Positions 25,867 to 53,048 of a DNA stretch of 53,156 bases are shown here, in pieces. Source of the stretch: a virus; IMG/VR virus record IMGVR_UViG_3300009156_000038. One strand, written 5' to 3'. How positions within the stretch are numbered: the stretch's first letter is position 1; every line of letters starts with the position of its first letter. The translations under genes were made by a program, and so were the position numbers. The notes below the pieces were generated by a model. The model saw only the letters and a list, made by a program, of their open reading frames with translations, did not search any database and was not told the DNA's origin.

Positions 25867-27600
25867 TTACACGACTGCGCAGGTGACCTCACGCTGGGCG
25901 CCGGTGTTACCGGACGGGCAGATCGGAACGGTGTAAACCCGGCTCAGCGGGCACATCCGCATCATCTTCCAACCGGTCTCTGTGAACAGCTGGGTCAGCT
26001 GGTTGGTGGCCAGCTTCACGCTGTCATATACCGCCGAAAGGGTGATAACGTCGGAAACCGCCCGAACCCACGTTCCCGCCGGGTAGACGAGGAACTTGAC
26101 ACCGGTCGGCAGCGCCGAGATCGCGGTGGCCGCACCCGGCCCGCCCTCCACTGGCGCACCCACGAGGTCCGTCGGGGCGAAGGCGTCCTGCCAGTCCATG
26201 ACCCACTGGGCGCGGGCACCGCGCAGCGTGAACCAGGACACGATCTGCGAATCGGTCAGCGCCATGTTGTCCATGTAGTCGCCGCCGTTGCGCCGGGAGA
26301 AGTCCGCGCGGAACTGGGCCAGCAGCCACCACGGGAGGATGACCTCCAGGGTCGCCGCCCGGCTCATCCGCAGCCGGTACTTGATGTCCACGATCGCCAG
26401 CTCGATGGCCGCCATCACCTGGGAGGCGACGGAGCCGTCGGATGCGAACGCCGGGGAGGCCGTGAGGTCCACTGCGGTGGAGTCCGCGACCATGGCCGCG
26501 ATCTGCAGCGAGTTGATCTGGTGCGCGGAGGCGACCATGGCGGCGCGCATCCACAGGGCCACGAACTCCGGGTACCCGCGGTTCTGCAGGATGTTGCCGG
26601 TGATGCACAGGCCCGTGACGCCGAGACGGTCGTCGATAAACGTGGGGCACGGGATCTCGATGCAGGTCTTCGTGGTACCCGCGATGACCTGGGCCTCGGT
26701 GAGGTTGAAGAACCCGGTGCCGCCGCCGAAGACGCCGGTGAAGTCGACACCCTGGTTGTGGCGGATGCCACCACGGCGGGCCTGGACCTCGGGGACGTCC
26801 AGGAGGCCGTCGATGACGCCCTGGAAGCAGGTGTCGTACAGCGTCTCGGACGGGGCGCACCAGCCCGCGGCGGCCACGAGACCGTCACGCAGCGGCTCGG
26901 TGACGGCCAGCTCCTGGCGCCGCTTCTCCACCTGGGCGATGAGACCGCCGGAACCGAACCGGCCGAACTCGTCGATCACCTTCGCCAGGACGGCGTCGTC
27001 CTCCTCCCGGTCGTAGACCGAGAACTCCTGCGGGTAGTCGCGGGTCAGGTAGGCGACCTGGTAGCTGATCGGCTCGCCGGAACCACCGGCACCGAGGGCC
27101 GCCAGGGATGCGAAGCTGTTGGTCTTGTTGACGAAAGCCTTGGCCAGGTCCCGCAGGTCCTTGAGCTCCGAGTCGGCCTGGAAGCCTTCGACGTTCGCCG
27201 CGGCGAACATGCGCCCGTAGACCGTCTTCTCGCCGGTGACGATCTCACCTTCGAGGACCGGGACATGCGGGGCGAGTTCGGCGATCGTGGGAGCCGAGAA
27301 CTCTTCCGGCTTCTCGACGACCGGCTCGATGGTCTCGATCGTCTCGACAGGGGTGGCCAGGACCGCGTGGCTGGCGAGCCGGTCGTTGGTGACGCCACGG
27401 CTGCGGATCTCGGCGGCAGCCGCATCCACGAAGCCCTTCAGGGCGTCCAGGTCGTCGGCCATCTGGTCGGTGCCCAGGCTCGAATCGGCCTTGAGGGAGG
27501 CTACGAGTGTGTTGTATTCGGTGGTCGCCTGGCTCGACATGGCGGTAAGCGCGGCGACCGTGAACAGCGACAGATCGCTGTCAGGGGTCTTGAAGATCAC
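25867..27600 (-). CDS. Major capsid protein with an N-terminal scaffold-like domain (~577 aa); start uncertain
   Basis: ORF 25867..27621. Coiled N-terminal third followed by a capsid-like core (GWCAPSETLYD...). GTG 27600 has GGAG 6 nt upstream. ATG 27540 and ATG 27621 are alternatives. Confidence 0.7.
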   Translation of the reverse strand: MIFKTPDSDLSLFTVAALTAMSSQATTEYNTLVASLKADSSLGTDQMADDLDALKGFVDAAAAEIRSRGVTNDRLASHAVLATPVETIETIEPVVEKPEEFSAPTIAELAPHVPVLEGEIVTGEKTVYGRMFAAANVEGFQADSELKDLRDLAKAFVNKTNSFASLAALGAGGSGEPISYQVAYLTRDYPQEFSVYDREEDDAVLAKVIDEFGRFGSGGLIAQVEKRRQELAVTEPLRDGLVAAAGWCAPSETLYDTCFQGVIDGLLDVPEVQARRGGIRHNQGVDFTGVFGGGTGFFNLTEAQVIAGTTKTCIEIPCPTFIDDRLGVTGLCITGNILQNRGYPEFVALWMRAAMVASAHQINSLQIAAMVADSTAVDLTASPAFASDGSVASQVMAAIELAIVDIKYRLRMSRAATLEVILPWWLLAQFRADFSRRNGGDYMDNMALTDSQIVSWFTLRGARAQWVMDWQDAFAPTDLVGAPVEGGPGAATAISALPTGVKFLVYPAGTWVRAVSDVITLSAVYDSVKLATNQLTQLFTETGWKMMRMCPLSRVYTVPICPSGNTGAQREVTCAVV

Positions 27601-27761
27601 GGAAAGCTCCAGGGGAAACATCGCTTGGACTGCGCGGCGTCAGCCTGTCCGCTGAAAGATGATCACGGCGGCGCCAGCCGGTCCCCTGATATGCCTAAGT
27701 TACCACAAGAAATATGCTTCGCAAGCTTCTGCCCGTTTCACCCCATACAATCAGACACCCG

Positions 27762-27968
27762 GTGGTGTATGATCCTCCGGTGGACAATTACGACGAACTA
27801 CTTACGCCAGGTGAAGTAGCCAAGCAGTTTCGGGTCGACCCGAAGACGGTGACCCGGTGGGCAGCGGCGGGCCGCATCAGCAGTATCCGTACCCCGGGCG
27901 GCCACCGGCGCTTCCGCAAGTCCGAAGTCACCGCACTCCTGGCAGGCAAAAGCCCCCAGAATCCGTGA
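27762..27968 (+). CDS. BldC-like / excisionase-family MerR-type HTH protein (68 aa)
   Basis: LLTPGEVAKQFRVDPKTVTRWAAAGRISSIRTPGGHRRFRKSEVTALLAG. TACAAT at 27746-27751 lies 10 nt before GTG 27762. It is on the opposite strand to the surrounding late genes. Codon GC3 is lower than in its neighbours. Confidence 0.75.
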   Translation: MVYDPPVDNYDELLTPGEVAKQFRVDPKTVTRWAAAGRISSIRTPGGHRRFRKSEVTALLAGKSPQNP

Positions 27969-28239: not shown

Positions 28240-31200
28240 CTAGATCAGGTGGGCGCCCAGGCGTACCTGGCGCGCTCGTAGTTCCTCGTGGGTCGGCAGC
28301 GGCTCATATCCCGACAGCCGGGCGATGCGCTGCTCCCGCCCCGAGTCCTCGCCACTGCAGCCGCAGTCCTGCGACTCCTCGGCCTCCTGGGCGGCCAGCT
28401 CCTCGGGACTGAATGTCACCCCGGCGATCAGGCCCATCTGCATCTCCTCCTCGAACCAGACGATCGGCCCGACAGGTCCCAGCTCCATGTCGACCGGTTC
28501 CCCGGTCGCCGACGCGACAATCGGGTACGCGGGACGATTCACACCCAATGCTGCCACAAGTTCCAGGTGCCCGTCGATCGGGTGCCAGTGACCTGATGCC
28601 GGGGTGCGGCGGATCTTCTGAGCCAGCGCCGGATCGTTGTCGGGGACCTGGACGCCGAAGAACACCGGACCGAACTCGTCCTCATACACCCGGCCCACCG
28701 CGGCCTCGGTACCGGTGTGCTCGTAGTGGGCCCGGACCTGGGCCGCGGTGATCCCCCGCCGGGTGGACCCGTGGTAGGCGTCGATGGTCAGCTTGCCTAC
28801 CTCCACCAGTTCCCCTTCAGCGGTGAGCTGCGTGCACACGTGGAAGTCCCGGTACCCCCGCCGGGACCGCGGGGGCTTCATGCAGATGTCCGGCCTGCCG
28901 ATCTGCAGACCCATGTGACAGGTGTCCCAGTCGGCCAGGTGGCCGTAGACCTCGTTGTATCCGTCGCGGGGCACCACGGTCATCTTCGTCTTGCGGGCCA
29001 GGCGCCGCTGGGCGAAAGCCGCTTTCGGCGGGTGGATCCCGTCGTAGCCGGACGCGACGAGGCCCGCCTGCGAGGTGTAGAGGCCGTCCAGGATCCGCCG
29101 GATCGAAGCCTTGTCCGATGCCGGGATGTCGGCCTGGTTGAGGCGTCCCTTGGCCGCGGTGACCGCGGCCCGGAAGACGGTGAGCTTCCCGTTGACGGGC
29201 ATCGCGATGGGGAACTTGTAGGCCGTCTTGTTCTCCCGGTTGGCCGCGTTGTACCACAGGAAGCCGCGGGCATACTTGGACATGTCGTCCCCGGCCCAGG
29301 CGTCCAGTGCGGCACGGGCGCGCCCCTCGTCCCAGGGTGCATCCGATGTGGGCAGCGAGGACCAGCCCGAGGTCCGCACCGCGAAGGTTTCGGTATCCAT
29401 GATGTCCGCCTTTGTTGCCTTCTGTGCCTTCTCTGCTGCCCGGTCCCAGCTGGCCTGGATGTTCGGATCGCCGAACTCGACGGCCAGCTTGGCGTAGATG
29501 TCCGAGATGACCGACCGCAGCCGGGCCTTGTCCGGGTCGGGGATGTTGGGCAACCCGCCGTGCCCGCCTTCCAGCAGGGCCGCGGCGGCGTAGATCGCGT
29601 GGTAGATCAGGTAGGGCTTGCCGTCGATGATGTCGCCCCACGGCAGCCGGTATCCGGCCCGGTCCAGCGGTGCCCCTTCTGGGTCGATCCAGAGGAACAT
29701 CTTGCGCATCTTGGACTCATCCGGCGAATCGCCACCGATGCCTGCATACAGTTCGATCCGGGACACCGCCTCATCGGCATCGAACTCGGCATCCCGGGGC
29801 GCCACCGGGGCACCCTTCCAACCGGCGGAGTTGACCGAAGCGAACTCACCTTCAGGGATCTCGACAACAAAAGGGATCGCCTGGGACCGGCCCCCGTCCT
29901 CCAGGGCCTGCGATGCCGCGGCCACCAGGGCATCCACCAGGTCGCCTTCAGCCACGGGCAGCCCTTCCGGGATGTACAGCGTCCCGGCATCGTCCTCCAC
30001 AGCCTCATCCACAGCCTCGGGATACTGCAGTTCCAGCCGCAGATCCGCGAACGCGGGGATCGAGACCAGGGTGGCTCCCCGGATCCGGCCCTCAGTGACC
30101 GCCAGCATCGTCTTGCCGCCGAACTCGACCGCGGTGCCAGTGAACGAATCCAGGTCTACGCTGGGACCCGCGACACCGTTCTCGACAAGATGGATCGCCT
30201 TGGTGACTTCGGGGATGACGTCCGGGTTCAGGAAGTAGCCTTCGCCGACGATCGCGGGCTTGCCCTGCCATTCGCCCTCATGGGCGTTGGTGATGGCTGC
30301 GACCGTGACGGCCGACTCGTGTCCCGGCATGCCTTTCTCCTGCCACCGCAGTGGCGCCGGGAACGACTGGTACGTCAGGGTGTCGGGGGGGAAGATGCGC
30401 CGGTCGCCGGTGGGCTTGCCGATGGGCGCGAGGGGGCCGCGCCAGGTGACCGGCGAGTAGGTGCCCATGGAGGCGACCAGGGCACCTAGGTCCTCGGCTC
30501 CCCGCAGCGGAATGTCGTAGTGGTCCCCGCCGAACGCGAGGCGCACCGTGTCAAAGGTTACAGGTCCGAGCCCGTCCACTAGTCCGCGGTGTTCGTCGAG
30601 ATCATCGGTGTACTTCGCGGTCACGTGGGCAGCGAAGGGCATGTGCTGGTCTGGCACCTTGGGCCCGTAGGTGTTGCCTGCCGCGTGCCGGATGGTGCGG
30701 TGCACCCGGTCCACGTCGGCACCGTCGATTCCGTAGACCAGCGCGGTGTCCTTGCCGTTGTCGCCGGGATTGAAGTACGCCAAAGCGAAGGCGTTCGCCC
30801 GTACGGGACCCTGGCTGCCCAGCGCCTTGGCCACCTCGGACGCCATCAGCAGCCGCTCCTGCGTGGACCATTCGACCGCATCGCCCAGGTAGGCCAAGGT
30901 GAGATGCAACTCCTCGACCGGCTCCCCGCCCTCCATGGCCAGACGCTTGGCGTCGTCGGCCGACGGGATCAAGGCGATCATGGCGCCGGTGTGGGTCTCG
31001 GCGGCGAACTCCTCCACGTCACCGTCGTGGGCGTTGCGGTCACCCGGGTACTTGCCGGTGGCCGCCTTGTGCAGGGTGTTGCACTCACCCTTCACCATGC
31101 GCTCGGGGACGTCGTGGCGGCGCAGGAACGCGACACAGCGGTCGAAATCGCCATGGGAGCCCCAGCCGATCTCGGCTGCCGCCTTCCCGTGCAGCAGGGA

Positions 31201-31248
31201 TTCCCGCAGTTGGGGCGGGATCCGGCTGACATCGAATTCCAGGGTCAT
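28240..31248 (-). CDS. Head maturation protease polyprotein with an embedded 2H-phosphoesterase-like domain (1002 aa)
   Basis: ATG 31248 overlaps the MuF stop (ATGA). HLTL and HVTA motifs lie about 93 residues apart (2H fold). They are followed by prohead-protease-like segments (TWRGPLAPIGKPTGDRRIF...; ...YGHLADWDTCH...). Confidence 0.75.
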   Translation of the reverse strand: MTLEFDVSRIPPQLRESLLHGKAAAEIGWGSHGDFDRCVAFLRRHDVPERMVKGECNTLHKAATGKYPGDRNAHDGDVEEFAAETHTGAMIALIPSADDAKRLAMEGGEPVEELHLTLAYLGDAVEWSTQERLLMASEVAKALGSQGPVRANAFALAYFNPGDNGKDTALVYGIDGADVDRVHRTIRHAAGNTYGPKVPDQHMPFAAHVTAKYTDDLDEHRGLVDGLGPVTFDTVRLAFGGDHYDIPLRGAEDLGALVASMGTYSPVTWRGPLAPIGKPTGDRRIFPPDTLTYQSFPAPLRWQEKGMPGHESAVTVAAITNAHEGEWQGKPAIVGEGYFLNPDVIPEVTKAIHLVENGVAGPSVDLDSFTGTAVEFGGKTMLAVTEGRIRGATLVSIPAFADLRLELQYPEAVDEAVEDDAGTLYIPEGLPVAEGDLVDALVAAASQALEDGGRSQAIPFVVEIPEGEFASVNSAGWKGAPVAPRDAEFDADEAVSRIELYAGIGGDSPDESKMRKMFLWIDPEGAPLDRAGYRLPWGDIIDGKPYLIYHAIYAAAALLEGGHGGLPNIPDPDKARLRSVISDIYAKLAVEFGDPNIQASWDRAAEKAQKATKADIMDTETFAVRTSGWSSLPTSDAPWDEGRARAALDAWAGDDMSKYARGFLWYNAANRENKTAYKFPIAMPVNGKLTVFRAAVTAAKGRLNQADIPASDKASIRRILDGLYTSQAGLVASGYDGIHPPKAAFAQRRLARKTKMTVVPRDGYNEVYGHLADWDTCHMGLQIGRPDICMKPPRSRRGYRDFHVCTQLTAEGELVEVGKLTIDAYHGSTRRGITAAQVRAHYEHTGTEAAVGRVYEDEFGPVFFGVQVPDNDPALAQKIRRTPASGHWHPIDGHLELVAALGVNRPAYPIVASATGEPVDMELGPVGPIVWFEEEMQMGLIAGVTFSPEELAAQEAEESQDCGCSGEDSGREQRIARLSGYEPLPTHEELRARQVRLGAHLI

Positions 31249-32045
31249 GCCGCCTCCGTGGTCGTCGCAGCGCATCGGCAATTTATCACCAAATGGGGCG
31301 GGGCGGATTTGTCGCCGGGCATCTGCATCGGGAACCCGCCCACGATGAACGGCTCCCGCAGGGGGCGCCGCTGCTTATCGGCCTGCTTGTGCTCCGCACG
31401 GACCCGGGTGTCGCCAGCCGCCAGCCACTCCTTGAGCAGAGGGTGCCCCAGGATCTGCTCGGTCTGGATCGCGGCTGCCATCCAACCGACGTTCGCAGCA
31501 CCGTTGACCTCGGTGACCGAGATGACCCGGGCCCTGGCGGGCCAGTTCTCGCTGCCGGTGACGGTGAGGACGTTCTCGATCCGGGCGGCGATCTCTTCCA
31601 GGTTCTCCCCCTCGTTGTGGCCGTCGATCACCTCGGCGATGATCTGCTGGTACGTCTCTTCCGGGATGCGTACCAGGTAGTTGGCCACCTGGGCCAGGTG
31701 GCCCACGACGAAGGCGTCGGTCGACGGATAGACCGGCAGGTCGACATCGGGGTGCTCACTGTCGAAACGGTCCCAGCCGTGCGGGGCCGCGTTACCGTCG
31801 AGCCACGCGACCAGCTTCTTCACTTCCCTGTCCCACAGGGGCACCGTCGACCAGAGGGCGGAAACGTCCGGTGCCTGCCGGAACCGGCGCCACGGGGTGA
31901 GGATCTTCGCGGAGACCGCAGCCAGCCACGCAGTGATCGCAGCCAGGACCAGGGCATAGAACGCAGCCTCCAGGGGCGTCAGCGTCTCATCGACCACCGG
32001 TTCCGGTGGCTGGGTCACATCCTCGGGTGGGATCGGCTCGGTCAC
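31245..32045 (-). CDS. MuF-like (SPP1 gp7 family) minor head protein (266 aa)
   Basis: Position after the portal gene. C-terminal DTRVRAEHKQ...PFIVGG...INCRC pattern. GTGA overlap with the portal stop. Confidence 0.75.
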   Translation of the reverse strand: MTEPIPPEDVTQPPEPVVDETLTPLEAAFYALVLAAITAWLAAVSAKILTPWRRFRQAPDVSALWSTVPLWDREVKKLVAWLDGNAAPHGWDRFDSEHPDVDLPVYPSTDAFVVGHLAQVANYLVRIPEETYQQIIAEVIDGHNEGENLEEIAARIENVLTVTGSENWPARARVISVTEVNGAANVGWMAAAIQTEQILGHPLLKEWLAAGDTRVRAEHKQADKQRRPLREPFIVGGFPMQMPGDKSAPPHLVINCRCAATTTEAA

Positions 32046-33958
32046 AGCAGCCCCGCATTGGCCAGCCAGCCCCGCATGACCCGGACCTGGTGGGGCCGGG
32101 CACCGTCTTCACCGAGCATCCGGTCCACGCAGTACGCGGACAGGGTGTCGCGCAGGAGCCCCACGTCGCCGCGGCGTCCCAGGTTCTCCATCAGGGGATC
32201 CAGGTACTGCCAGCCGCTGGCCAGCAGGGCCCTGGCATGGTCGGCGTTGTCGGGACGCAGGTGCAGGTACACCTCGTCGTGGGACACCTTGGCGAACTGG
32301 CCCCCGCCGGGCCTGCGCAGCAGGGCCTTACCGGCCCGCTCCAGGGCCTGGCGGCAGGCGGCGTCCGCGGCCACGATCAGGGCCAGCTCCTGCGGGGACG
32401 TCATCGCCGCGGTCACCGGTGACGGGTTGCCCTGCGGGTTGCCGGGACGGGTGGACTCGTCGGGGGTGGCACTGGGGCCGGTCGGCGGCTTCAGGGTGCG
32501 TTCCGGTGGCGGCGGCGACGGTGCCCGGCCAGCGATCCCCGGCTGCTGGTCCTGTCCCGGCATCTGGCCGTCGGGCACGATGTCGGTGATCGAGGTCAGA
32601 CCGGCGATCTCGCGCAGCTTCGGGATCAGGATCAGGTTGCTGTCGGACAGCAGAAGCTTCGTGGCCAGGTCCCGTTCCCGCTCCTTCTGGCTGATGGCGG
32701 CCGACGGGGGCAGGTCCGCGGCGATCAGGACCTGGTCGTCGCCGACGACACCCAGCTCCCGCAGCTTCATGGTCTCCTGCAGCCGCTGGGGCCGGATGGT
32801 CAGGCCCGACAGGTCGAACCAGTACTTGTACTTCTTCGGGTTCTTGTTGCGGGAGGTCAGGGCGGGCTTCAGGTACACCTGGGTCGCGGCGTTGCAGATG
32901 CGCGCCATGATCGGGCGCACCACGTTCTCCACCGTGTCCGCGGTCATCGAGAACATGTTCCACCCGGTGGCCTCGCCCATGCCGGTGACGATCTCGGGGG
33001 CGATGTCCATCCCGGCCGCCAGGCGCTCACGCAGCTCCTTGCGCAGGTCCATGGCTTCTTTGGACAGTTCGGAGCCGAAGGTGATCGGGGGCTTGATCTT
33101 GTCGAAGACTTTTTCCGGCATTTCCACGATCATGGGCAGCACCTGGGATGCCGACCCGAACGCCTTCATGTTCTTCTCGCCCGCGTCGAGCATCCGCTTC
33201 ATCAAGGATTCGCCGTTGACCGGGTCGGTGTCCTTCGTTGGGTAGTCCACGCCGGTGGGCCAGATCCAGACCCCGGCGGAAGCCAGGCGGCTGCGGGCCT
33301 GGGCCAGGATGTACTGGGTCAGGATCTCCAGTTCCACCAGGACCATCTGCAGGGACCGGCCCGGCGAGTCCGAACAGTGGGTCCGGTAGGGGTGCGGGGT
33401 CCAGCAGCGGTAGAGGATGTCGCGCCCTTCCTCCAGGCGGTAGGTGCGCCGCCCGTCGAAGAACTCGTAGACCTCCGGGTTGTCTTCCGTGGTGGACAGG
33501 ACCTCAGTGGCGTTGGTGGCGACCGCGGTCTCGATCCGCTTCAGCTCGTTACGCGATACTGCGTACCATTTGTCGGACTCTTCGGCATTGAAGCCGAGGA
33601 CCCAGAACTCGCCCGACACCATGAGGTTGACGCCCATGAGGCGCAACAGGTCGGCTTGGCGCTCGGGTCCCCCGAACAGGCTGTAGGCCAAGCCTGCAAT
33701 CGACTTCTCCTTGACCTCCTGCTGCACCTGTCCCGCGTCGTCGACCTCGGCCACGTAGACGCGCACCCGGCTGCAGGCGCTGCCGACCCAGTTCGCGGCC
33801 CGGGAGAATTCGGGCACCACGTCATAGAGGCGCCAGATCTCCGTCATCCAGGCTTCGTCGGTGGACAGGTACTTGTTCCACAGAGGCTCAGCGAAGGATG
33901 CGCTCATGGCGGAGGCGATGAGACCCCGTAGCGCGACCGGTTCCTTCTTGCGACCCAT
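32042..33958 (-). CDS. Portal protein (638 aa)
   Basis: Size and position between the terminase and the MuF-like gene. RBS GAGGG. Confidence 0.8.
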   Translation of the reverse strand: MGRKKEPVALRGLIASAMSASFAEPLWNKYLSTDEAWMTEIWRLYDVVPEFSRAANWVGSACSRVRVYVAEVDDAGQVQQEVKEKSIAGLAYSLFGGPERQADLLRLMGVNLMVSGEFWVLGFNAEESDKWYAVSRNELKRIETAVATNATEVLSTTEDNPEVYEFFDGRRTYRLEEGRDILYRCWTPHPYRTHCSDSPGRSLQMVLVELEILTQYILAQARSRLASAGVWIWPTGVDYPTKDTDPVNGESLMKRMLDAGEKNMKAFGSASQVLPMIVEMPEKVFDKIKPPITFGSELSKEAMDLRKELRERLAAGMDIAPEIVTGMGEATGWNMFSMTADTVENVVRPIMARICNAATQVYLKPALTSRNKNPKKYKYWFDLSGLTIRPQRLQETMKLRELGVVGDDQVLIAADLPPSAAISQKERERDLATKLLLSDSNLILIPKLREIAGLTSITDIVPDGQMPGQDQQPGIAGRAPSPPPPERTLKPPTGPSATPDESTRPGNPQGNPSPVTAAMTSPQELALIVAADAACRQALERAGKALLRRPGGGQFAKVSHDEVYLHLRPDNADHARALLASGWQYLDPLMENLGRRGDVGLLRDTLSAYCVDRMLGEDGARPHQVRVMRGWLANAGLL

Positions 33959-34345: not shown

Positions 34346-35872
34346 CTACCACCCGAAATTGAACCCGTGCCCGAGCCCGTCGTCCCAGCGGCTCTCACGC
34401 TGCTTATCCACCTCGCTGGGATCGATGATCTTCCCCCGATCCCGCTCGTTGATCATGTGCTGGCGGCAGGCGTGGACCATGGCGTCGAGCCGGTCCGGCG
34501 ATTCCTTGCCGTCCCACGAGGTGAACGTGGTCAGTTGATCCTTCAACAAGGTCAGCGGGCCGACGGTGTCGATCGTCTGGACCGGCTCCACCAGGTGCAG
34601 CTTGCCCTGCTGGGACCGCATGGCCACCGGTTCGGCCCGAGTCTTCTTGCCCAGTTTCGCGTCCACGCCGACGATCGGTGCGGTCGTGTTCGCCGGAGCC
34701 TCGCCGAGCTGGATCAGTTCGGACCAGGCGTCCCGGAAGACGTCCATCATCCACTTCTTGCCCAGGTTGTCCTCGCAGACCAGCAGGTCCGCGTTCCATT
34801 TGATCATGACGCGCCAGGCGTGCATCGCAGCCTCTTTGCCCGCGGCCTTGATCGTCTCGTCGGCCAGGACGTACATGTGTGTCGAACGGCACCGGGCCAC
34901 CACGACCACACCCATCTCGTCATGGGCATCTCGGGACCGGCCAGCCCGGCGCGAGGTCGACTCCTCCTCGCCGACATCGTCAGCCAGGGACGGGTCGATC
35001 CCGACGTAGATCGCCGAGACGATCTCGCCTTCCGGGATCTCGGTGACTTTGTACTTCTCCAGGTCCCCGAGCTTGAACAGGGCCCCCTGCATCAGTTCCA
35101 GGACGTCTCCGTACAGCTCCTGGCGCCCGAGGTCGGTGCCTTCGTATTTGGCGAGCAGGATCTTGAGCATCTGCGGGGACAGGTTCTCCGCGTTGTCGAA
35201 CGTCGACCCCCGGATCACGTGGACCGTGCCGTCGGTGGACTCCATCCAGCCCTTGAGCAGCCTGGACGGCTTCGGGGTCGTGGTGGCGAAGACCCGCGGG
35301 TGGTCGGTTTCCAGGTCTGCCCGTAATGCCGGTAGAATCCCTTCGAACCAACTTTGGTATGCTCTGGGCCATTTTACTATTTCGTCCAGCCAGGCGCCTG
35401 CCAGGTTGTAGCCGCGGCCCACGTCCTCGTCGTCGGCGCCCTCGCAGTGGATCTTGCAACCGTTGGGGAAGATCACCATCGGCTTCGGGGACTGCTTGTA
35501 CCGGTGGGCGATGCCCCGACGGTCGAGGACCCGCAGGATCCCTGCCGGTCCCTCCATGCAGATGGCCCGGGCATCCGACAGAGTCTCGGCCACCACGAGG
35601 TATTCGGTCGGGGCACCATGGCGATCCTTCGGGTAGAGCTGGGTACGTTCCACCAGCCACTCGGCACCGGCCCGGCTCTTGCCCCATCCCCGGCCGCACA
35701 GGGCCAGGGCCAGCAGCCATGCGCCCGGCGGGGGGACCTGTTCCGGGCGGGCCAGCCACCACCATTCGCCGCGGGCGATCTCTTTCAGGACCCAGGGTTC
35801 CTGCTCGTCGATCCATGCCTCCCGCAGGTGAGGCGGGAGTAATGCGAACCTTTGGGCCAGACTTAGTGCCAT
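34346..35872 (-). CDS. terL: Terminase large subunit (508 aa)
   Basis: Walker-A-like CGRGWGKSRAG. Typical TerL length. First gene of the late operon. ATG 35872 is chosen because the upstream ORF extension overlaps tRNA-Pro and the divergent promoter. Confidence 0.85.
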   Translation of the reverse strand: MALSLAQRFALLPPHLREAWIDEQEPWVLKEIARGEWWWLARPEQVPPPGAWLLALALCGRGWGKSRAGAEWLVERTQLYPKDRHGAPTEYLVVAETLSDARAICMEGPAGILRVLDRRGIAHRYKQSPKPMVIFPNGCKIHCEGADDEDVGRGYNLAGAWLDEIVKWPRAYQSWFEGILPALRADLETDHPRVFATTTPKPSRLLKGWMESTDGTVHVIRGSTFDNAENLSPQMLKILLAKYEGTDLGRQELYGDVLELMQGALFKLGDLEKYKVTEIPEGEIVSAIYVGIDPSLADDVGEEESTSRRAGRSRDAHDEMGVVVVARCRSTHMYVLADETIKAAGKEAAMHAWRVMIKWNADLLVCEDNLGKKWMMDVFRDAWSELIQLGEAPANTTAPIVGVDAKLGKKTRAEPVAMRSQQGKLHLVEPVQTIDTVGPLTLLKDQLTTFTSWDGKESPDRLDAMVHACRQHMINERDRGKIIDPSEVDKQRESRWDDGLGHGFNFGW

Positions 35873-35935
35873 GTGTCCGAATATTACTTCATGACCTGTT
35901 ATGTACGCCAGCCCCAAAAAATCTTGAATACGCAT

Positions 35936-35964
35936 TTGACACGGGGGGAGGGCGTAGGTAGTGT
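35936..35964 (+). promoter_or_regulatory. Sigma70-type promoter driving the tRNA / accessory block
   Basis: TTGACA at 35936-35941, a 17-nt spacer cggggggagggcgtagg, and TAGTGT at 35959-35964. The first 16 nt are identical to the TIR promoter. Confidence 0.65.
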
Positions 35965-36057
35965 TCTGGGTGTGCAAGACGGAGCGAGGGCAACGAAAGC
36001 GGACGACCCGGGCTACGGAAGCATGGGACTGCCGGTCACAGTGATCGACGGTCTCCA

Positions 36058-36130
36058 CGGATACAGGGCCCAAGGCGGGCCGCCTGGTTTGGGACCAGGA
36101 CACTGGTAGGTTCGATTCCTACGTATCCGA
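36058..36130 (+). tRNA. tRNA-Pro (anticodon TGG)
   Basis: Hand-folded cloverleaf: acceptor cggatac/gtatccg, D stem ggcc/ggcc, anticodon stem cctgg/ccagg with loop tttggga, T arm gtagg-ttcgatt-cctac. Confidence 0.8.
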
Positions 36131-36284
36131 CGGCTGGGGCGCCCTGGTTAATTCCCCCCAGTTGTGTTTCCAGGCTCCCGGGGCCTGACGGGATCATGGG
36201 CTCCCGGACCCGGGGGCCTACAAACGAGGCGCAACTGGAGAGGGCAAGCTATACCGGTTCAGGACCGGGACATTTGTGCCACAA

Positions 36285-36356
36285 GTGGTCGTAGTGTTAA
36301 TGGCAACACACCTGTCTTCCAAACAGGAGTTCCGGGTTCGAACCCCGGTGACCGCA
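36285..36356 (+). tRNA. tRNA-Gly (anticodon TCC)
   Basis: Acceptor gtggtcg/tgaccgc (2 G:U pairs), D stem gtgt/acac, anticodon stem cctgt/acagg with loop cttccaa, T arm ccggg-ttcgaac-cccgg. Confidence 0.8.
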
Positions 36357-36466
36357 CGATGCCGCCGGGGGCGGTGGCAAGGGGAACCGAAGGGGCGTGT
36401 GGCCCTTCCGGGAGGCCCGGTGATTGGCGGGTTAGACCGGGCGACATCAAGCTGAGAGAGAAGGAC

Positions 36467-37198
36467 ATGGGCAAGCTTCATCAGGTCATCGCCGTCGAGA
36501 GCACTGTCAAGGCGAACGCCGAGACCGCGTTCACCAAGGCGTACCACGAGATCCAGAAGAACGACCAGTTCCTGGGGCTCACCAAGACGTATCAGCCCGC
36601 CAACGAGGACGGCTTCCAGCTCCCGCCGGAGTCGAAGAGGGTCCTGTCGAACGCGAACACGCTGATCACGGACGTCCAGGCGGCACTGGAGAAGCTGTTC
36701 GATCACGTCGCCACCAAGGACACCGCGAACCAGGGCGCCAAGGCCGACATCGAGTTCCTGGGGGTGACCGTCAAGGACGTCCCGGTGGCCACGCTGCTGT
36801 GGGTGGAGAAGAAGCTGGTCGACATCCGGACCTTCGTGTCGAAGATCCCGACCCTGGATCTGGCGGAGGAGTGGACCTGGGACCAGTCGGCTCAGATCTT
36901 CCGGGCGGCACCGTACGCCACGGCGCGTCAGCGCAAGGACACCGAGTACATCACGGTCGTGCAGCCCACCGACAAGCATCCGGCCCAGGTGGTGGCGAAG
37001 CCGGTCGACGTGTTCGAGGGCACCTGGACGACGACGAAGCTGTCGGGCGCCATGTCGCCTGCCCGCAAGCGTGACATCCTGGGACGGGTGGACGGGCTGC
37101 TGATGGCGGTGAAGCGCGCCCGGGAGACCGCGAACTCATTCGAGGTCACCAACGTCTCGATCGGCAACACCCTGCTGAACCTCGTGTTCGGCTCCTAG
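36467..37198 (+). CDS. Conserved-looking hypothetical protein (243 aa)
   Basis: Frame of ORF 36164..37198. ATG 36467 with RBS GAGAAGGA. The earlier part of the ORF overlaps tRNA-Gly. Confidence 0.75.
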   Translation: MGKLHQVIAVESTVKANAETAFTKAYHEIQKNDQFLGLTKTYQPANEDGFQLPPESKRVLSNANTLITDVQAALEKLFDHVATKDTANQGAKADIEFLGVTVKDVPVATLLWVEKKLVDIRTFVSKIPTLDLAEEWTWDQSAQIFRAAPYATARQRKDTEYITVVQPTDKHPAQVVAKPVDVFEGTWTTTKLSGAMSPARKRDILGRVDGLLMAVKRARETANSFEVTNVSIGNTLLNLVFGS

Positions 37199-37201
37199 AC
37201 T

Positions 37202-37216
37202 CCCGGGTAACCCGGG
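37202..37216 (+). terminator. Short hairpin after the 243-aa gene
   Basis: cccggg-taa-cccggg, 4 nt after the stop. No T-run follows. Confidence 0.35.
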
Positions 37217-37350
37217 TGAGCACAAGATGATGTTGAAGCTTAGCCTCAGTGGTCCAGGGATGGACGCGTTCAAACTGAAGCTATCGCTCCAAGATCATTA
37301 ACAGTCCCAGATCGCCACATCAAATAGCAGCAGGCAAGGGAACCGCAGTC

Positions 37351-37378
37351 GGGGGTTCGAATCCCCCCGGGGCCGCCA
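37351..37378 (+). ncRNA. Orphan tRNA 3' module (T arm, 3' acceptor strand, discriminator, encoded CCA)
   Basis: ggggg-ttcgaat-ccccc then cggggcc-g-cca. I found no complementary 5' acceptor strand upstream. The complement ggccctg lies 3 nt downstream. Confidence 0.4.
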
Positions 37379-37460
37379 CATGGCCCTGTGGAGAAGTGGC
37401 ATCTCAGCATCCGTAAGAACTGACCTGAGGCTTTAAACGCCGGTGGCGTGAGTGGGAAAC

Positions 37461-37531
37461 CAAGTGATTGGGCAATGGCAGCCCAACAGCCTATCAAGCT
37501 GTAGATCTCGGTTCGAATCCGAGTCGCTTAA
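37461..37531 (+). tRNA. tRNA with anticodon ATC (Asp codon GAU) and a C1:A72 mismatch
   Basis: Acceptor caagtga/tcgctta, D stem gggc/gccc, anticodon stem acagc/gctgt with loop ctatcaa, T arm ctcgg-ttcgaat-ccgag. Confidence 0.5.
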
Positions 37532-37576
37532 ACACAATTTCAGGGGTCCGGCAGGCTAGTCCGGGCCCCTGGCCAA

Positions 37577-37642
37577 GCCCCGATAGCTCAATTGGCAGAG
37601 CGGTCGACGGACGAGATGTGGGTTCGAATCCCACACGGGGCA
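37577..37642 (+). ncRNA. tRNA-like element with a truncated anticodon arm (66 nt)
   Basis: Acceptor gccccga/acggggc (6/7 pairs), D arm gctc-aattggca-gagc, T arm gtggg-ttcgaat-cccac. Only 16 nt (ggtcgacggacgagat) lie between the D and T arms. Confidence 0.5.
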
Positions 37643-37726
37643 CAACTCCGTTCCAGCTATGGGCTGGCGGAATAGTACAGGGATACGCGGCCCTGTGCGG
37701 GCATGGGAAGTCATGAGCCCCATGTA

Positions 37727-37808
37727 GTGACGTGGTGTAAGGCAGCACGGGGACCCAACTCCCAAGTGGAGCGGAACCAGGTCCAGGTTTCGAAATCCTG
37801 GAGTCACG
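37727..37808 (+). ncRNA. Class-II-like tRNA-like element with a 6-nt anticodon loop (82 nt)
   Basis: Acceptor gtgacgt/gagtcac (1 mismatch), D stem gtgt/gcac, stem ggga/tccc with loop cccaac, long variable arm, T loop ttcgaaa closed by a U:U pair. Confidence 0.4.
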
Positions 37809-37811
37809 CGA

Positions 37812-37885
37812 GACCCTGTAGCCCAATGGGTAGAGGCACTGGATTCAAGTTCCGGTCAGTCCAGGTTCGAATCCTGGCAGGGTCA
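37812..37885 (+). tRNA. tRNA with anticodon CAA (Leu by anticodon) but class-I architecture
   Basis: Perfect acceptor gaccctg/cagggtc, anticodon stem ctgga/tccgg with loop ttcaagt, 5-nt variable loop, T arm ccagg-ttcgaat-cctgg, A73. Confidence 0.65.
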
Positions 37886-37904
37886 CGACCTGAAAGGAGA
37901 AATC

Positions 37905-38096
37905 ATGGAGATCGGTAAGTGGACCAAGGCGAGCAAGAGCGGCACCGCCGGTGCCTGCGTCGAAGTGAAGGAACTGGAGGCTGGGCTCATCGGGGTGCGC
38001 GACTCCAAGGACCCGGGCGGCCCCATCCTGTTTTTCACTCGGGACGAGTGGAACGCGTTCCTCGACGGCGCCACCAAGGGCGAATTCGACCTGTGA
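37905..38096 (+). CDS. DUF397 (BldB-family-like) small protein (63 aa)
   Basis: WTKASKSGTAGACVEV...VRDSKDPGGPILFFTRDEWNAFLDGATKGEFD is a typical DUF397 pattern. RBS AAGGAG. Confidence 0.85.
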   Translation: MEIGKWTKASKSGTAGACVEVKELEAGLIGVRDSKDPGGPILFFTRDEWNAFLDGATKGEFDL

Positions 38097-38185
38097 CGGG
38101 TTTCTGGGACATATTCTGGCCCGTGTTCTGGGCAGTCCTGTCGGCCCTGGCGGTACGTTCGATCATCAGGGCTGTCTTTGAGTAG
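38093..38185 (+). CDS. Possible 30-aa hydrophobic peptide
   Basis: GTG 38093 overlaps the DUF397 stop (GTGA). Sequence VTGFWDIFWPVFWAVLSALAVRSIIRAVFE. Confidence 0.35.
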   Translation: MTGFWDIFWPVFWAVLSALAVRSIIRAVFE

Positions 38186-38189
38186 CCCT

Positions 38190-38298
38190 GGGCTACTAGC
38201 TCAACGGATAGAGCACGGTCTCAAAGCCCGGAGGCGAGCGTCGACTAGCGCCGGGTGGGCGTAGGCCGAGGTTCCTGGTTCGAGTCCAGGGTAGTCCA
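38190..38298 (+). ncRNA. tRNA-like element with a 43-nt anticodon-loop region (109 nt)
   Basis: Acceptor gggctac/gtagtcc, D arm gctc-aacggata-gagc, stem cggtc/ggccg enclosing 43 nt (internal cccgg/ccggg hairpin), 5-nt variable loop, T arm cctgg-ttcgagt-ccagg. Confidence 0.5.
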
Positions 38299-38333
38299 CG
38301 CAACATGAGGAAAGTCCAACGAGAAGAGGACAA

Positions 38334-38723
38334 ATGGCAATGCTAGTCAACAGCTCCCGCCTCAGCGAGGTCCGGAGCGAAATGACCAGGGAGCGCCAGG
38401 AACAGGAGAAGCGGGAGATACGGGTGATGCTCGACGAATACGGCACCGACGACTACGCGGACGGCACGGTGCTGATGTGCACCAAGGAGTCCTACGGCGG
38501 CATCGACGAGCCGATCACTTTCGTCCTCGTCAAGAACACCAGGGGCATCAAGAACGGCTGGCGGCGCATCGGTTCCGTTCACGAGATGACGTGGGACAAC
38601 CTGGTGGACTGGCTGCTCATCGAGGGCACCCCGACCCGCAAGGCCGACCTGATCGAGCTGGCACCCAAAGCGACGGTGGCCGACGTCAAGGCCCCCGAGA
38701 TCCCGCTGCCCAAGGCGGACTAG
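38334..38723 (+). CDS. Hypothetical protein (129 aa)
   Basis: ORF track. RBS GAAGAGGA upstream. Confidence 0.7.
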   Translation: MAMLVNSSRLSEVRSEMTRERQEQEKREIRVMLDEYGTDDYADGTVLMCTKESYGGIDEPITFVLVKNTRGIKNGWRRIGSVHEMTWDNLVDWLLIEGTPTRKADLIELAPKATVADVKAPEIPLPKAD

Positions 38724-38769
38724 TTCGCTACTGACGATCCCACTGGGGGCCTGAGTCATAATCAAATAG

Positions 38770-38894
38770 GGGGATGTACCCGAAGCGGCCAAACGGGTGA
38801 CCGGCGGAATCATCTAGTGCACTACTTAACACCGCCGGAACAGGGTATCCCGGTGCACCGGGGGCCCACGTGGTTTCCAATCCCACCATCCCCA
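38770..38894 (+). ncRNA. Oversized tRNA-like element (125 nt)
   Basis: Perfect acceptor ggggatg/catcccc, Tyr-type D arm cccg-aagcggccaaa-cggg, 7-bp stem ccggcgg/ccgccgg enclosing 24 nt with the palindrome tagtgcacta, extra hairpin cccgg-tgca-ccggg, T loop ttccaat. Confidence 0.45.
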
Positions 38895-39339
38895 CGCAAA
38901 AGCAGCAGAAGGTAACCGTGCCACGGGTTACTCAAGGAGCTGTGCCAGCAGCCCGGAGGGCACCGGAGAACCTGGCGGAGGGTGTAGCCGTATCTCTACC
39001 AAGAGCGTGCGGTCACCGGGGGTCGCGGTCCCGGCACCCACGAACGGCGTCAACATGGTCGGCCGGGAGAATGAAGGCTCCCGGGATCGACGTGAAAGGA
39101 TGGCAGCCCACCGCTGGGTGCTGAGACACGCGGTGGTGCCGCAGGCTGGTCGAGCAGCTTGCGTGTCGTCGGAGAAGAACCCTGGGGACCATTACGCCCC
39201 GGGGGCCACACCTGCGCCGTGCAAACTACAGGAGCATGAAGAAGGGACCAGGAACATGATCCTCGATGAGGAACAGCGACTCAAGGAACTGGGTAATCCC
39301 GAGGCGTGGGCCGAGGTTCCCCGGCCCACGGAGTAAGAC

Positions 39340-39416
39340 GTAACGCTGGCGGCCATGGTACCCGGGGAGATCCCGGGGCGCCCTCGAATAGGTCACGAAA
39401 CAGCCGCCAGCGTTAC
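39340..39416 (+). ncRNA. 77-nt stem-enclosed structured element
   Basis: Perfect 14-bp closing stem gtaacgctggcggc/gccgccagcgttac, internal hairpin cccggg-gagat-cccggg. Ends 4 nt before tRNA-Asn. Confidence 0.4.
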
Positions 39417-39420
39417 CCGT

Positions 39421-39491
39421 TCCGAGATCGTCCAACGGCAGGACACCGAGTTGTTACCTCGGGAATCGGGGTTCGAATCCCTGTCTCGGAG
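39421..39491 (+). tRNA. tRNA-Asn (anticodon GTT)
   Basis: Acceptor tccgaga/tctcgga, D stem gtcc/ggac, anticodon stem ccgag/ctcgg with loop ttgttac, T arm cgggg-ttcgaat-ccctg. Confidence 0.85.
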
Positions 39492-39495
39492 CCCA

Positions 39496-39591
39496 GGGCC
39501 CGTAGCTTAAGCGGAACCGTGGGAAACGTACGCCCGGCCGGTTCCCGGGAAAGAGCGCCGGAGGGTGCGGGTTCGAATCCCGCCGGGTCCA
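39496..39591 (+). ncRNA. tRNA-like element (96 nt) with expanded D and anticodon regions
   Basis: Acceptor gggcccg/cgggtcc, T arm gcggg-ttcgaat-cccgc, stem ccggc/gccgg enclosing 18 nt, 29 nt where the D arm should be. Confidence 0.45.
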
Positions 39592-39599
39592 CGCAACAA

Positions 39600-39682
39600 G
39601 GTGATGTCGTCCAGCGGCCTAGGACCCAGGGGGAGCTTCGGGCTCACACTCCGAGACGCCGGTTCGAATCCGGCCGTCACCA
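39600..39682 (+). ncRNA. tRNA-like element (83 nt) with an expanded anticodon region
   Basis: Acceptor ggtgatg/cgtcacc, Glu/Gln-type D arm gtcc-agcggccta-ggac, T arm gccgg-ttcgaat-ccggc. 32 nt lie between the D and T arms (ggag/ctcc stem, 13-nt loop). Confidence 0.5.
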
Positions 39683-39699
39683 CGTAACAGGAGGATGCG

Positions 39700-39855
39700 A
39701 TGAAGTGTGTCAACGGGCACGACTGGGAGGACTGCAGCTGCCCCAAGACCGAGGAGTTCCGCGCAGCTCAGGACCGCTGGACACTGCAGGTTACCTTGGT
39801 GGCGGTGACGGTGGCCGTGTGTGCCGGGTTGCTGGTGGCAGCGATGCTGCATTGA
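39700..39855 (+). CDS. Small membrane-anchored Cys-containing protein (51 aa)
   Basis: ATG 39700 with RBS AGGAGGA 5 nt upstream. MKCVNGHDWEDCSCPK... followed by the TM helix VTLVAVTVAVCAGLLVAAML. Not in the ORF track (<60 aa). Confidence 0.55.
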   Translation: MKCVNGHDWEDCSCPKTEEFRAAQDRWTLQVTLVAVTVAVCAGLLVAAMLH

Positions 39856-39871
39856 GGGAGAAGGAGGAGTA

Positions 39872-40285
39872 GTGAAGGAGTTCCTGAAAGTCGGCGGCAC
39901 CATCCTGGGTGCCGTGCTCGGCGTGGCCCTGCTGGGCTGGGGTATCTACGCCGTCAAGGTGGCTATGTCGCCGGTGAAGGGTGCTGGGGACACGGTGATC
40001 CAGAACAACAGCGTCCGCAACCGCACCCAGGCGCAGGAGCGGATGCAGGAGATGTACGCGGCGGTGGAGCGTAATGTCCGCAACGTCCAGGTGGCTACGG
40101 CCGCCGCGAAGCAGCACCCCAACGACCGGATCCTGGGCACCAACGCGGACGGGGCGCTGCAGATCTGCTTCGCTGCCGTGGCGGACTACAACGCAGAGAC
40201 CGGGAAGATCCTCACCCGCGACTGGGTGTCGGACAAACTTCCCCTGACCATCGACGATTCGATCTGTGAGGCGGCAGCGAAGTGA
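39872..40285 (+). CDS. Membrane protein (137 aa)
   Basis: Frame of ORF 39821..40285. GTG 39872 follows GAAGGAGGAG. N-terminal TM GGTILGAVLGVALLGWGIYAV. Confidence 0.65.
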   Translation: MKEFLKVGGTILGAVLGVALLGWGIYAVKVAMSPVKGAGDTVIQNNSVRNRTQAQERMQEMYAAVERNVRNVQVATAAAKQHPNDRILGTNADGALQICFAAVADYNAETGKILTRDWVSDKLPLTIDDSICEAAAK

Positions 40286-42519: not shown

Positions 42520-42748
42520 TCCCGAGCTAGCCGCCCTGATGCCGGAGCCGTTCCTGACGGTGCGTCCGGGGGACCAGGTGACGCTGTTCGTGCCGCTACT
42601 GGATCGTACTTACGCCATGGACCCGGCAATGCACCTTCAGAAAGCCCTGAACGCCTGGACACCTGGCGTGACGTGGGCGATCGTCGAGGGGACCGGGGTC
42701 ACCGGGGTCATTCACGTGGCCCGGGAGGATCGAACTCCCCGTTCTTGA
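42494..42748 (+). CDS. Hypothetical protein (84 aa)
   Basis: ORF track. Its 3' end converges on and overlaps the - strand DUF397 gene. Confidence 0.55.
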   Translation: MPSDHSAFDPELAALMPEPFLTVRPGDQVTLFVPLLDRTYAMDPAMHLQKALNAWTPGVTWAIVEGTGVTGVIHVAREDRTPRS

Positions 42749-42899
42749 CCCCCGCGATGAAGGCGTCCCACTCCGGCCGGGCCAGGATCACTGATCCTTG
42801 TCCCCGTTCGCTGCTGCGGACCCAGACCGCTTCACGCTGGAAGCTGACTTCCACGCAGGCGGTGGCTTCGCAGAAGCTGCTGCGGACCCATTCGATCAT
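42708..42899 (-). CDS. DUF397 (BldB-family-like) small protein (63 aa), second copy
   Basis: MIEWVRSSFCEATACVEV...VRSSERGQGSVILARPEWDAFIAGVKNGEFD. ATG 42899 overlaps the dcd stop (ATGA). Confidence 0.8.
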   Translation of the reverse strand: MIEWVRSSFCEATACVEVSFQREAVWVRSSERGQGSVILARPEWDAFIAGVKNGEFDPPGPRE

Positions 42900-52228: not shown

Positions 52229-52557
52229 TCTTCCTCCTTCATCCGTACGTCAACTGGCAGCTTCTCCCGGAAGCCGTCGAACCATGCCTCACCGTCGGGG
52301 GTGAGCCACCACCGCCCGTCACTCTTCACCACGTGGCCGCGGGCCTCCATGATCTTCAGCTTCCGGTCACACCGGTACTCCTCCACCCGGCCCTCGAATC
52401 CGCCGCCGTGCAACCTGCGCCTGGTCCGGGCCACCTGCATCATGCTCCGGCCGCTGGGAGCGATCCGGACCCGCGTCGGGTTCGCCACGATCGCGCGGGC
52501 TACGCCGTACAGCTCCCACTCCTTGGGCTGCAGGATCCCCATCTGACCCCGGCTCAT
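52225..52557 (-). CDS. Hypothetical protein (110 aa), possibly winged-helix
   Basis: ORF track. ATGA overlap with the phosphatase-like gene. Confidence 0.65.
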   Translation of the reverse strand: MSRGQMGILQPKEWELYGVARAIVANPTRVRIAPSGRSMMQVARTRRRLHGGGFEGRVEEYRCDRKLKIMEARGHVVKSDGRWWLTPDGEAWFDGFREKLPVDVRMKEEE

Positions 52558-53048
52558 GACGCCTCCCCCGCAGCTTCCCGGATGTACTGCAGGAACGTCT
52601 TGTTGTGCAAGGCGTACGGGGACCGTTTCGCACGGATCAGCTCGACCGCACCGGGCATGTCGTACCCCAGTTTCATCAGGGCGAACGCCACCACAAGCCC
52701 CGACTGGTTGTACCCCGCCTGGCAGCGCACCAGGACCTTCATGCCCGCTTCGACTAGCGCTGCGACATTCGCGGCGTACCGGACCACAGCGGCCAGCTCC
52801 TCATCGGTCAGGTCGCCGTCAGGGATCGGGAAATGGAAGTGCGTCACCCCGACGTCGGGACCGCACGCCCGAGTCACAGCGTCCCCGCGGCCCCAATAGA
52901 AGGAGAAGACGGCGTCGAATTCCCTGCCGACCCGCACCATGGATCCGTCGGTCCAATACTGCGTGGTGACCTGGCCGCCCTGGAACAGGCCCGGGACGAT
53001 CTCGTTCCAGGGATCATCGGGATAGGGGATGTATGCCACTCCACTCAT
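52554..53048 (-). CDS. Dual-specificity-phosphatase-like protein with a variant active-site loop (164 aa)
   Basis: VLVRCQAGYNQSGLV aligns with the DSP P-loop VHCxxGxSRS, and an upstream FPIPDGD fits the general-acid region. The start at 53048 mirrors ATG 109. Confidence 0.7.
   Translation of the reverse strand: MSGVAYIPYPDDPWNEIVPGLFQGGQVTTQYWTDGSMVRVGREFDAVFSFYWGRGDAVTRACGPDVGVTHFHFPIPDGDLTDEELAAVVRYAANVAALVEAGMKVLVRCQAGYNQSGLVVAFALMKLGYDMPGAVELIRAKRSPYALHNKTFLQYIREAAGEAS

Follow-up and report, generated by a model that had tools for sequence, protein, structure and literature searches.

Why would a phage head-assembly protein carry what looks like a nucleotide-cleaving enzyme, and where would that enzyme act? 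The question is raised by IMGVR_UViG_3300009156_000038, a stretch of 53,156 nucleotides (the window, taken here at its full length), which is an almost complete metagenomic contig of an actinobacterial phage (~53-56 kb). When a phage collection was searched at the nucleotide level, no sequenced phage proved to be closely related to the window. Its gene at 28240..31248 (minus strand) encodes 1002 amino acids (aa) from an ATG, and a preliminary description made from the sequence alone had placed in the product, at 30517-30990 (residues 87-244), a domain of the 2H phosphoesterase superfamily with two H-x-T motifs ~93 residues apart. Our analysis points to a 2H phosphodiesterase that would be packaged within this head-assembly polyprotein, delivered with the DNA and used to degrade nucleotide immune signals, a reading to which we give a probability of roughly one half.

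Both motifs lie where they had been described. The first, H115-L-T117-L (residues 115-118; 30895..30906, minus strand), stands in the context EELHLTLAYLGD, and the second, H208-V-T210-A (residues 208-211; 30616..30627, minus strand), in the context AAHVTAKYT, with a spacing of 93 residues. Residues 76-262, used as a query, brought up 21 homologues that are 35-47% identical. In the resulting 22-sequence alignment, H115, T117 and H208 never vary and the conservation of T210 is at least 90%, a strictness that argues for catalysis. Profiles agree with the assignment at different strengths: PHROG 2659 (‘RNA ligase’) covers residues 76-249 with E=2.5e-30, and PF13563 (2'-5' RNA ligase superfamily) matches the window protein with 23.5 bits (E=6.4e-5), below its curated cut-off of 27 bits. 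All 22 sequences match PF13563 at E<=0.05 (best 1.3e-9), and 15 of them match PF02834 (LigT_PEase). When the PDB sequences were searched with a profile, both motifs aligned, weakly (E~3e-3), with those of PH0099, PF0027 and TT0787; motif 1 fell on LHITLKFLGE (PH0099) and LHLTLLFLGE (TT0787), and motif 2 on the AHITL/PHITLA of solved LigT homologues. A single-sequence phmmer search of the domain against the PDB gave marginal matches only (1iuh, E=0.96).

The preliminary description had suggested a fold and profile search near residues 80-260, and this recovered a 2H fold. An AlphaFold2 model built with the homologue alignment reached a predicted local distance difference test score (pLDDT) of 88 and a predicted template modelling score (pTM) of 0.84, with both H-x-T motifs at the starts of beta-strands (E41-48 and E133-138, model numbering). 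The 50 top Foldseek matches listed from the PDB all have a 2H fold, and 47 have E<=0.001. The best is E. coli LigT/ThpR (5ldm, E=7.7e-7; template modelling score (TM) to LigT 0.58-0.61), followed by archaeal and Thermus LigT homologues, Deinococcus CPDase, Usb1, AKAP18, ASCC1, phage Acb1 and viral phosphodiesterases acting on cyclic GMP-AMP (cGAMP) or 2'-5' oligoadenylate (2-5A). In BFVD the best matches are actinophage ‘RNA ligase’ proteins, with TM up to 0.83. Taking AlphaFold2, Foldseek, BFVD, PF13563 and PHROG 2659 together, we set the 2H core at residues 88-247 (30508..30987, minus strand); it is apparently a LigT/ThpR-like 2H phosphodiesterase, predicted to be catalytically intact.

A chance pair of H-x-T motifs in a non-2H region was also considered. 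The motif is of low complexity: H-x-[ST] occurs five times in the whole 1002-aa protein, and a third H-x-T, HRTI at residue 183, is unconserved and lies within a helix. Profile, conservation and fold evidence all indicate 2H and refute this possibility, whose probability we regard as next to nil.

To which 2H branch does the domain belong? The ThpR equivalog model TIGR02258 matches weakly (14.1 bits against a cut-off of 65.7), and the domain therefore appears, on profile evidence, to be a divergent member of the LigT-like branch, and probably neither a ThpR orthologue nor a member of the Acb1 family. E. coli ThpR/LigT and its archaeal and Thermus homologues (5ldm, 1vdx, 2fyh, 1iuh) are RNA 2',3'-cyclic phosphodiesterases of ~175 aa with the same fold and the motifs hHhTLxaLG and pHhTLa. 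The window domain is ~15% identical to them and, unlike them, is embedded in a virion-assembly protein; a Tyr that is invariant in its subfamily replaces the Arg of the TT0787 motif 2, PHITLAR. Acb1 (T4 gp57B, FBB1 7t26/7t27, BCSR5 9q2g) and the viral LigT-like cGAMP and 2-5A phosphodiesterases share the 2H fold and two catalytic His and are viral destroyers of immune signals, but Acb1 proteins are small and standalone (~137-165 residues in solved chains), and we know of no packaging of them into virions. Our literature search found no paper on the BCSR5 phosphodiesterase.

Evidence that a domain of this kind reaches the virion comes from a Gordonia phage. Dyson et al. 2015 (PMC4524720, Table S5) detected three proteins, orf9, orf10 and orf16, by mass spectrometry of purified GMA2 virions, in a preparation that, as far as the text of the paper shows, was not gradient-purified. 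Two of them, orf9 (portal) and orf16 (major capsid), belong to the same PHROG families as the corresponding window proteins. The third, orf10 (883 aa), is the founding member of PHROG 2659; its gene stands right after the portal gene, and the protein carries a segment resembling an ADP-ribosyltransferase (ART) toxin (residues 552-707) and a C-terminal 2H domain (residues 729-875; phmmer 3.4e-16 to the window domain) with the motifs EELHLTLAY and TPHITA. The 18 virion peptides reported for orf10 (PMC4524720, Table S5) map between residues 142 and 846, and one of them, SEVGDYDAYTPHITAVTGQQAR, spans the second HxT motif. Virions of a phage whose head module is related to that of the window thus do contain a homologous 2H domain.

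What kind of protein carries the domain in the window? We divided the 1002-aa product into six modules using 379 homologues from a full-length search (E<=1e-5); all coordinates that follow are on the minus strand. The N-domain (residues 1-75; 31024..31248) is a small conserved Cys/His module (GDFDRCV...ECNTLH; phrog_6439, E=2.2e-15) that recurs beside 2H, S3 or MuF in many relatives. The 2H domain follows it and precedes the protease-annotated segments, the position that the preliminary description had given it. Next come S3 (residues 263-412; 30013..30462), which is mostly beta and matches phrog_859 and phrog_21470 at E~1e-25, and two repeats resembling DUF6582, S4a (residues 469-614; 29407..29844) and S4b (residues 623-728; 29065..29382), which align with each other in hhalign at E=1.4e-20. 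The DUF6582 model PF20223 matches 22 of 56 homologues of this carrier, which we call the chassis. S5 (residues 737-907; 28528..29040) is called ‘head maturation protease’ by PHROG (phrog_18402, E=3.4e-31; phrog_859, E=1.2e-39). The C-terminal tail (residues 908-1002; 28243..28527) consists, from AlphaFold2 and the sequence, of a disordered acidic stretch and then helices (low pLDDT at model residues 644-705, helices at 707-717 and 725-739), and we infer that it is a candidate capsid-interior or scaffold-binding tail.

By its profile matches (whole protein against phrog_859, E=9.6e-67, and phrog_18402, E=1.2e-58), the 1002-aa protein is a member of the actinophage ‘capsid maturation protease (and MuF-like fusion)’ family (PHROG 859/18402/21470). 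In 257 phage records, the tblastn matches of S3 fall under genes named ‘capsid maturation protease (and MuF-like fusion protein)’, and S5 matches 831 phage records, most of them annotated as capsid maturation protease. Hundreds of phages of Mycobacterium, Gordonia, Microbacterium and Arthrobacter carry S3 and S5, the two halves of the SEA-PHAGES ‘capsid maturation protease’. The PHROG 859/21470 profiles have the two side by side; in the window protein they stand apart, with 255 aa of DUF6582-like repeats in between. The actinophage proteins named ‘capsid maturation protease and MuF-like fusion protein’ (e.g., in cluster B mycobacteriophages) have S3, S5 and the N-domain in common with the window protein and occupy the same place in the head operon, but in them MuF is fused, while the window has it as a separate, translationally coupled gene (PF04233, 31245-32045), so that its 2H domain does not share a polypeptide with MuF.

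Among relatives, the 2H domain behaves as a module that moves. It is N-terminal in the clade of the window protein, C-terminal after S5 in other proteins (P0089, P0090, P0093 and more), and absent from many close relatives (P0044-P0088), in which the N-domain joins S3 directly. It shares one protein with MuF in P0100, P0104, P0107 and P0136, an arrangement that includes the order MuF-N-2H-S3 in Streptomyces phage Abt2graduatex2 (P0136). In GMA2 orf10, unlike in the window, it is C-terminal after the ART-toxin-like domain, and no S3 or S5 modules were detected. In some relatives it is a separate gene of 210-320 aa, directly upstream of the chassis gene and overlapping its start, and at these loci the upstream MuF gene carries an ART toxin; such MuF proteins are very large (1635 aa at L002 1097-6004 and >1900 aa at L004 1-4920). 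A head module with a separate 2H gene and a MuF-borne ART would therefore hold two candidate packaged effectors. In other relatives the chassis bears a PF03496 ART toxin or a PI3/4-kinase-like domain. One relative of ~67-73% identity (L008 7001-11012) has the gene split in two: the first product reads N-2H-S3-DUF6582, followed by a Gly/Ser/Lys-rich linker and a VIP2-type ADP-ribosyltransferase, and the second gene (433 aa) encodes DUF6582-S5-tail, so that the toxin cassette sits exactly between the DUF6582 repeats. The 2H subfamily counts 4,246 cluster representatives at E<=1e-3 (769 at E<=1e-30); 76 of the best 150 are longer than 600 aa, and 48 have recognisable MuF, N, S3 or S5 modules. Exchangeable enzymatic modules on a head-assembly carrier fit the pattern typical of encapsidated effectors.

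The delivery at infection that the preliminary description had proposed gains plausibility from this swappable module, from a chassis shared with ART toxins and from the 2H domain in GMA2 virions; for the window phage itself we infer packaging, release, ejection and substrate. The chassis and its C-terminal tail would take the whole polyprotein into the procapsid, where maturation proteolysis would free the compact 2H domain. Probably too large to exit the shell, the freed domain would stay in the virion and enter the next cell together with the DNA, while newly made copies would also be present in the cytoplasm late in infection. There it would cleave small phosphodiester substrates, the likeliest targets being nucleotide second messengers of host defence (cyclic oligonucleotides, 2'-5'-linked or 2',3'-cyclic species). 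A broader and more tentative proposal is that the N-S3-DUF6582-S5 polyprotein is a general chassis for swappable cargo (2H, ART toxins, kinase-like domains), on which the window 2H domain would be pre-packaged, ready to break down nucleotide immune signals as soon as infection begins; this would make it a virion-delivered counterpart of Acb1, a kind of enzyme not known experimentally from any phage.

The 2H domain might instead never be delivered. Fragments of prohead protease and scaffold normally leave the capsid, and the domain could be cut off and lost from mature virions, acting only in the cytoplasm late in infection or serving an assembly or nucleotide-binding role. AKAP18-type 2H proteins (Foldseek 2vfk, 5jj2) keep the HxT motifs yet bind nucleotides, which is the precedent for the last of these; the existence of the domain as a separate gene in some relatives and its failure to appear in virions of the phage GTE6 (see below) point the same way. 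On the other side stand the homologous 2H domain in GMA2 virions, the swapping with ART toxins and the MuF fusions typical of packaged cargo, and the strict His/Thr invariance, which favours catalysis. We consider non-delivery quite unlikely.

A second possibility concerns the substrate. The preliminary description had offered tRNA repair as a candidate role, and a ThpR/LigT-like enzyme could heal RNA 2',3'-cyclic phosphate ends, for example on tRNAs cut by host anticodon nucleases, complementing the tRNA cluster of the phage. The nearest solved structures and the profile matches are LigT/ThpR RNA 2',3'-cyclic phosphodiesterases; TIGR02258 matches, if weakly, PF02834 matches in 15 of the 22 sequences, and the window encodes 8 tRNAs. 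However, it is textbook knowledge that a 2H cyclic phosphodiesterase acting alone leaves a 2'-phosphate end, which is no substrate for direct sealing by RtcB. A location in the head module is also unexpected for a repair enzyme. Moreover, no RtcB, Rnl-type ligase, polynucleotide kinase or Tpt1-like partner was recognised among the larger non-structural open reading frames (ORFs) scanned, small ORFs not all being covered; those scanned gave a primase-helicase, a dCTP deaminase/dUTPase, a Cas4-like exonuclease, RusA, a DUF7873 protein and a dual-specificity phosphatase. The lack of a recognised RNA ligase or kinase partner disfavours tRNA repair, and so does the finding of Iyer et al. 2017 (PMC5512222), who described 2H-MuF and 2H-portal fusions, that the phage 2H class is never associated with RNA ligases. 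The repair role is weakened accordingly, and we now think it unlikely.

Iyer et al. proposed RNase action or degradation of nucleotide signals for these proteins (PMC5512222). In the first case, the domain would be an offensive effector that trims or cleaves host RNAs on entry by Usb1-like transesterification, paralleling the RNase domains fused to MuF in other phages. Usb1 is among the good Foldseek matches (5v1m, E=2.3e-5, TM 0.60), and on the chassis ART toxin domains either accompany 2H domains as cargo or replace them. Against this, the similarity to Usb1 is no better than that to LigT, and no RNA-binding module was recognised; we hold such a role to be very unlikely. For the second case there is precedent in viral LigT-like phosphodiesterases, which have been repeatedly recruited against immune messengers (Acb1, poxvirus cGAMP phosphodiesterases, coronavirus and rotavirus 2-5A phosphodiesterases; Nomburg et al. 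2024, PMC11410667). Because of this precedent, the lack of a recognised ligase partner and the survey of Iyer et al., we rank a packaged, signal-degrading phosphodiesterase first, ahead of a ThpR-like RNA-end enzyme, then a Usb1-like RNase, and last a role without delivery or without catalysis.

Several observations weigh against a packaged, signal-degrading 2H enzyme. (i) The closest structural and sequence similarity is to the housekeeping LigT/ThpR RNA 2',3'-cyclic phosphodiesterases and not to Acb1, whose Foldseek matches (9q2g, 7t26/7t27) have E~3e-4 as against 7.7e-7 for LigT. The Acb1 model PF23474 does not match the window domain at E<=0.05; it matches 3 of the 22 sequences weakly (best 5.2e-5), and the GMA2 domain at 7.9e-4, under the cut-off. 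(ii) The protein that carries the 2H domain in GMA2 is of another kind than that in the window. In GTE6, the homologue of the 2H-protease protein is closer in architecture and is absent from the three virion proteins that were detected, at very low coverage (PMC4524720). (iii) The standalone 2H genes of relatives have no obvious packaging signal. (iv) The protease activity needed to release the domain is putative.

How well founded is the label ‘head maturation protease’, which the preliminary description had used? It rests on database names and gene position; our searches turned up neither a recognisable protease fold nor a match to a Pfam protease family. A Pfam scan of the 56 chassis homologues found only DUF6582 and 2H, with no protease family and no Peptidase_S78 (PF04586). 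The AlphaFold2 model of residues 263-1002 (740 residues) has confident domain structure with a pTM of 0.37; used whole as one Foldseek query, it matched nothing in the PDB below E=0.17, and the profile of the homologue alignment (A2) found nothing meaningful among PDB sequences. In hhalign, neither S3 nor S5 matched HK97 gp4 significantly, alone or as a profile (probability <3%), although the gp4 (S78) profile is shallow and weak, since its 120 close homologues are all at least 68% identical. S3 and S5 have no detectable homology to each other. The alignment A2 does reveal invariant residues in both modules: H310, S363 and D365 in S3, and C777, H778, C789, H826 and S885 in S5, which include the His/Ser pairs H310/S363 and H826/S885. 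Read by eye, the order of motifs (H310...S363...ATLVSIPAF in S3; HY..TG...PxSGxW...LELVAAL.VN.PA.P in S5) resembles that of HK97-type (S78) prohead proteases, a lead without statistical support, and the C777-H778...C789...H826 set of S5 could be a metal site. Given the null results with Pfam, Foldseek and HK97 gp4, we use ‘head maturation protease’ as a well-supported family label that reflects family membership and gene position only, with protease fold and activity putative.

The neighbourhood of the gene is that of a head operon. On the minus strand, the order is large terminase (34346-36103), portal (32042..33958; phrog_776, E=1.2e-106), MuF-like minor capsid protein (31245..32045; PF04233, E=1.3e-10), the 1002-aa gene, a 77-aa ORF and the major capsid gene (25867..27621; 584 aa; phrog_777, E=2e-125 over residues 130-582). 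The ATG of the 1002-aa gene overlaps the MuF stop as ATGA, and a GGAGG (Shine-Dalgarno) lies 5 nt before it. Public gene callers give the same 1002 aa, the protein is identical to the 1002-aa product (P0022) on 4 contigs read in public metagenome assemblies, and the 2H segment has the same codon composition as the remainder of the gene (G+C at third codon positions (GC3) of 0.86). The PHROG 777 match of the major capsid protein begins at residue 130, leaving an N-terminal extension of ~130 aa; this extension might be a domain of the delta or scaffold kind, to which the C-terminal tail of the 1002-aa protein could dock.

Other features of the window may be noted. An 84-aa ORF at 27714-27968 (plus strand) runs antisense to the head operon, in the 372 bp that separate the 77-aa gene from the capsid gene. 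Its product shows a convincing helix-turn-helix of the excisionase/MerR type (phrog_66, E=3.6e-9), but its codon composition is atypical (GC3 of 0.67 against 0.86 in its neighbours); public gene callers leave it out, and it may be a moron-like regulator within the structural module. A 176-aa ORF at 52554-53084 (minus strand) has a dual-specificity protein phosphatase domain (PF00782, E=2.1e-8) and a weak match to a polymorphic-toxin DSP-PTPase family; it may be another host-directed enzyme. The DUF7873 protein (E=1.6e-82) is encoded at 36164-37198 (plus strand), divergently beside the large terminase gene, and the same layout is seen in the relative with the split gene (L008). Seven of the tRNA genes (Pro, Gly, Asp with the unusual anticodon ATC, Leu, Asn, Thr and Leu) lie at 36058-39683 (plus strand), and the eighth, tRNA-Arg, at 42715-42791 (minus strand); an ARAGORN ‘tmRNA*’ call at 39500-40165 overlaps two tRNAs and is probably spurious.

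The arrangement itself is not new, since it is already common in related phages, where similar genes are annotated, and the idea of 2H-MuF and 2H-portal proteins as injected effectors was published in 2017 (PMC5512222). Close homologues carry the label ‘2'-5' RNA ligase’ in JGI annotations. Gene 17/18 of Gordonia Kroosvirus phages, e.g., Baddon gp18 (1124 aa), is named ‘RNA ligase’ in GenBank and ‘head maturation protease’ in RefSeq and, as in the window, joins 2H (PF13563, E=2.4e-5) and S5 in a single long polypeptide whose gene lies between those for MuF and the major capsid protein. It is only ~37% identical over ~40% of the query and differs in domain order and spacers; the window protein, for its part, has two DUF6582-like repeats inserted between S3 and S5. 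The actinophage genome papers do not discuss the 2H fusion. The T4 internal proteins and Alt, the MuF-toxin fusions and the polyvalent proteins (PMC5512222) embody the same concept of effectors borne on assembly proteins, processed by the head protease and injected with the DNA; their carriers are MuF or a capsid-targeting peptide, whereas the window has a protease-type chassis, in a lineage known from sequence alone. Specific to the window are the order N-2H-S3-DUF6582x2-S5 with a separate, coupled MuF gene and the existence of a sister lineage with an ART-toxin insertion.

If the 2H domain is packaged and ejected, nucleotide-signalling defences (the cyclic oligonucleotide-based anti-phage signalling system CBASS, type III CRISPR and related systems) would be neutralised, or RNA ends processed, before phage genes are expressed, a timing unlike that of the known cytoplasmic Acb1-type enzymes. 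The swapping of domains on the chassis would provide a route to new packaged effectors. Because the 2H subfamily is so large and many of its members lie in head-module polyproteins, one biochemical result would provide an annotation for thousands of phage genes that are now mislabelled ‘RNA ligase’.

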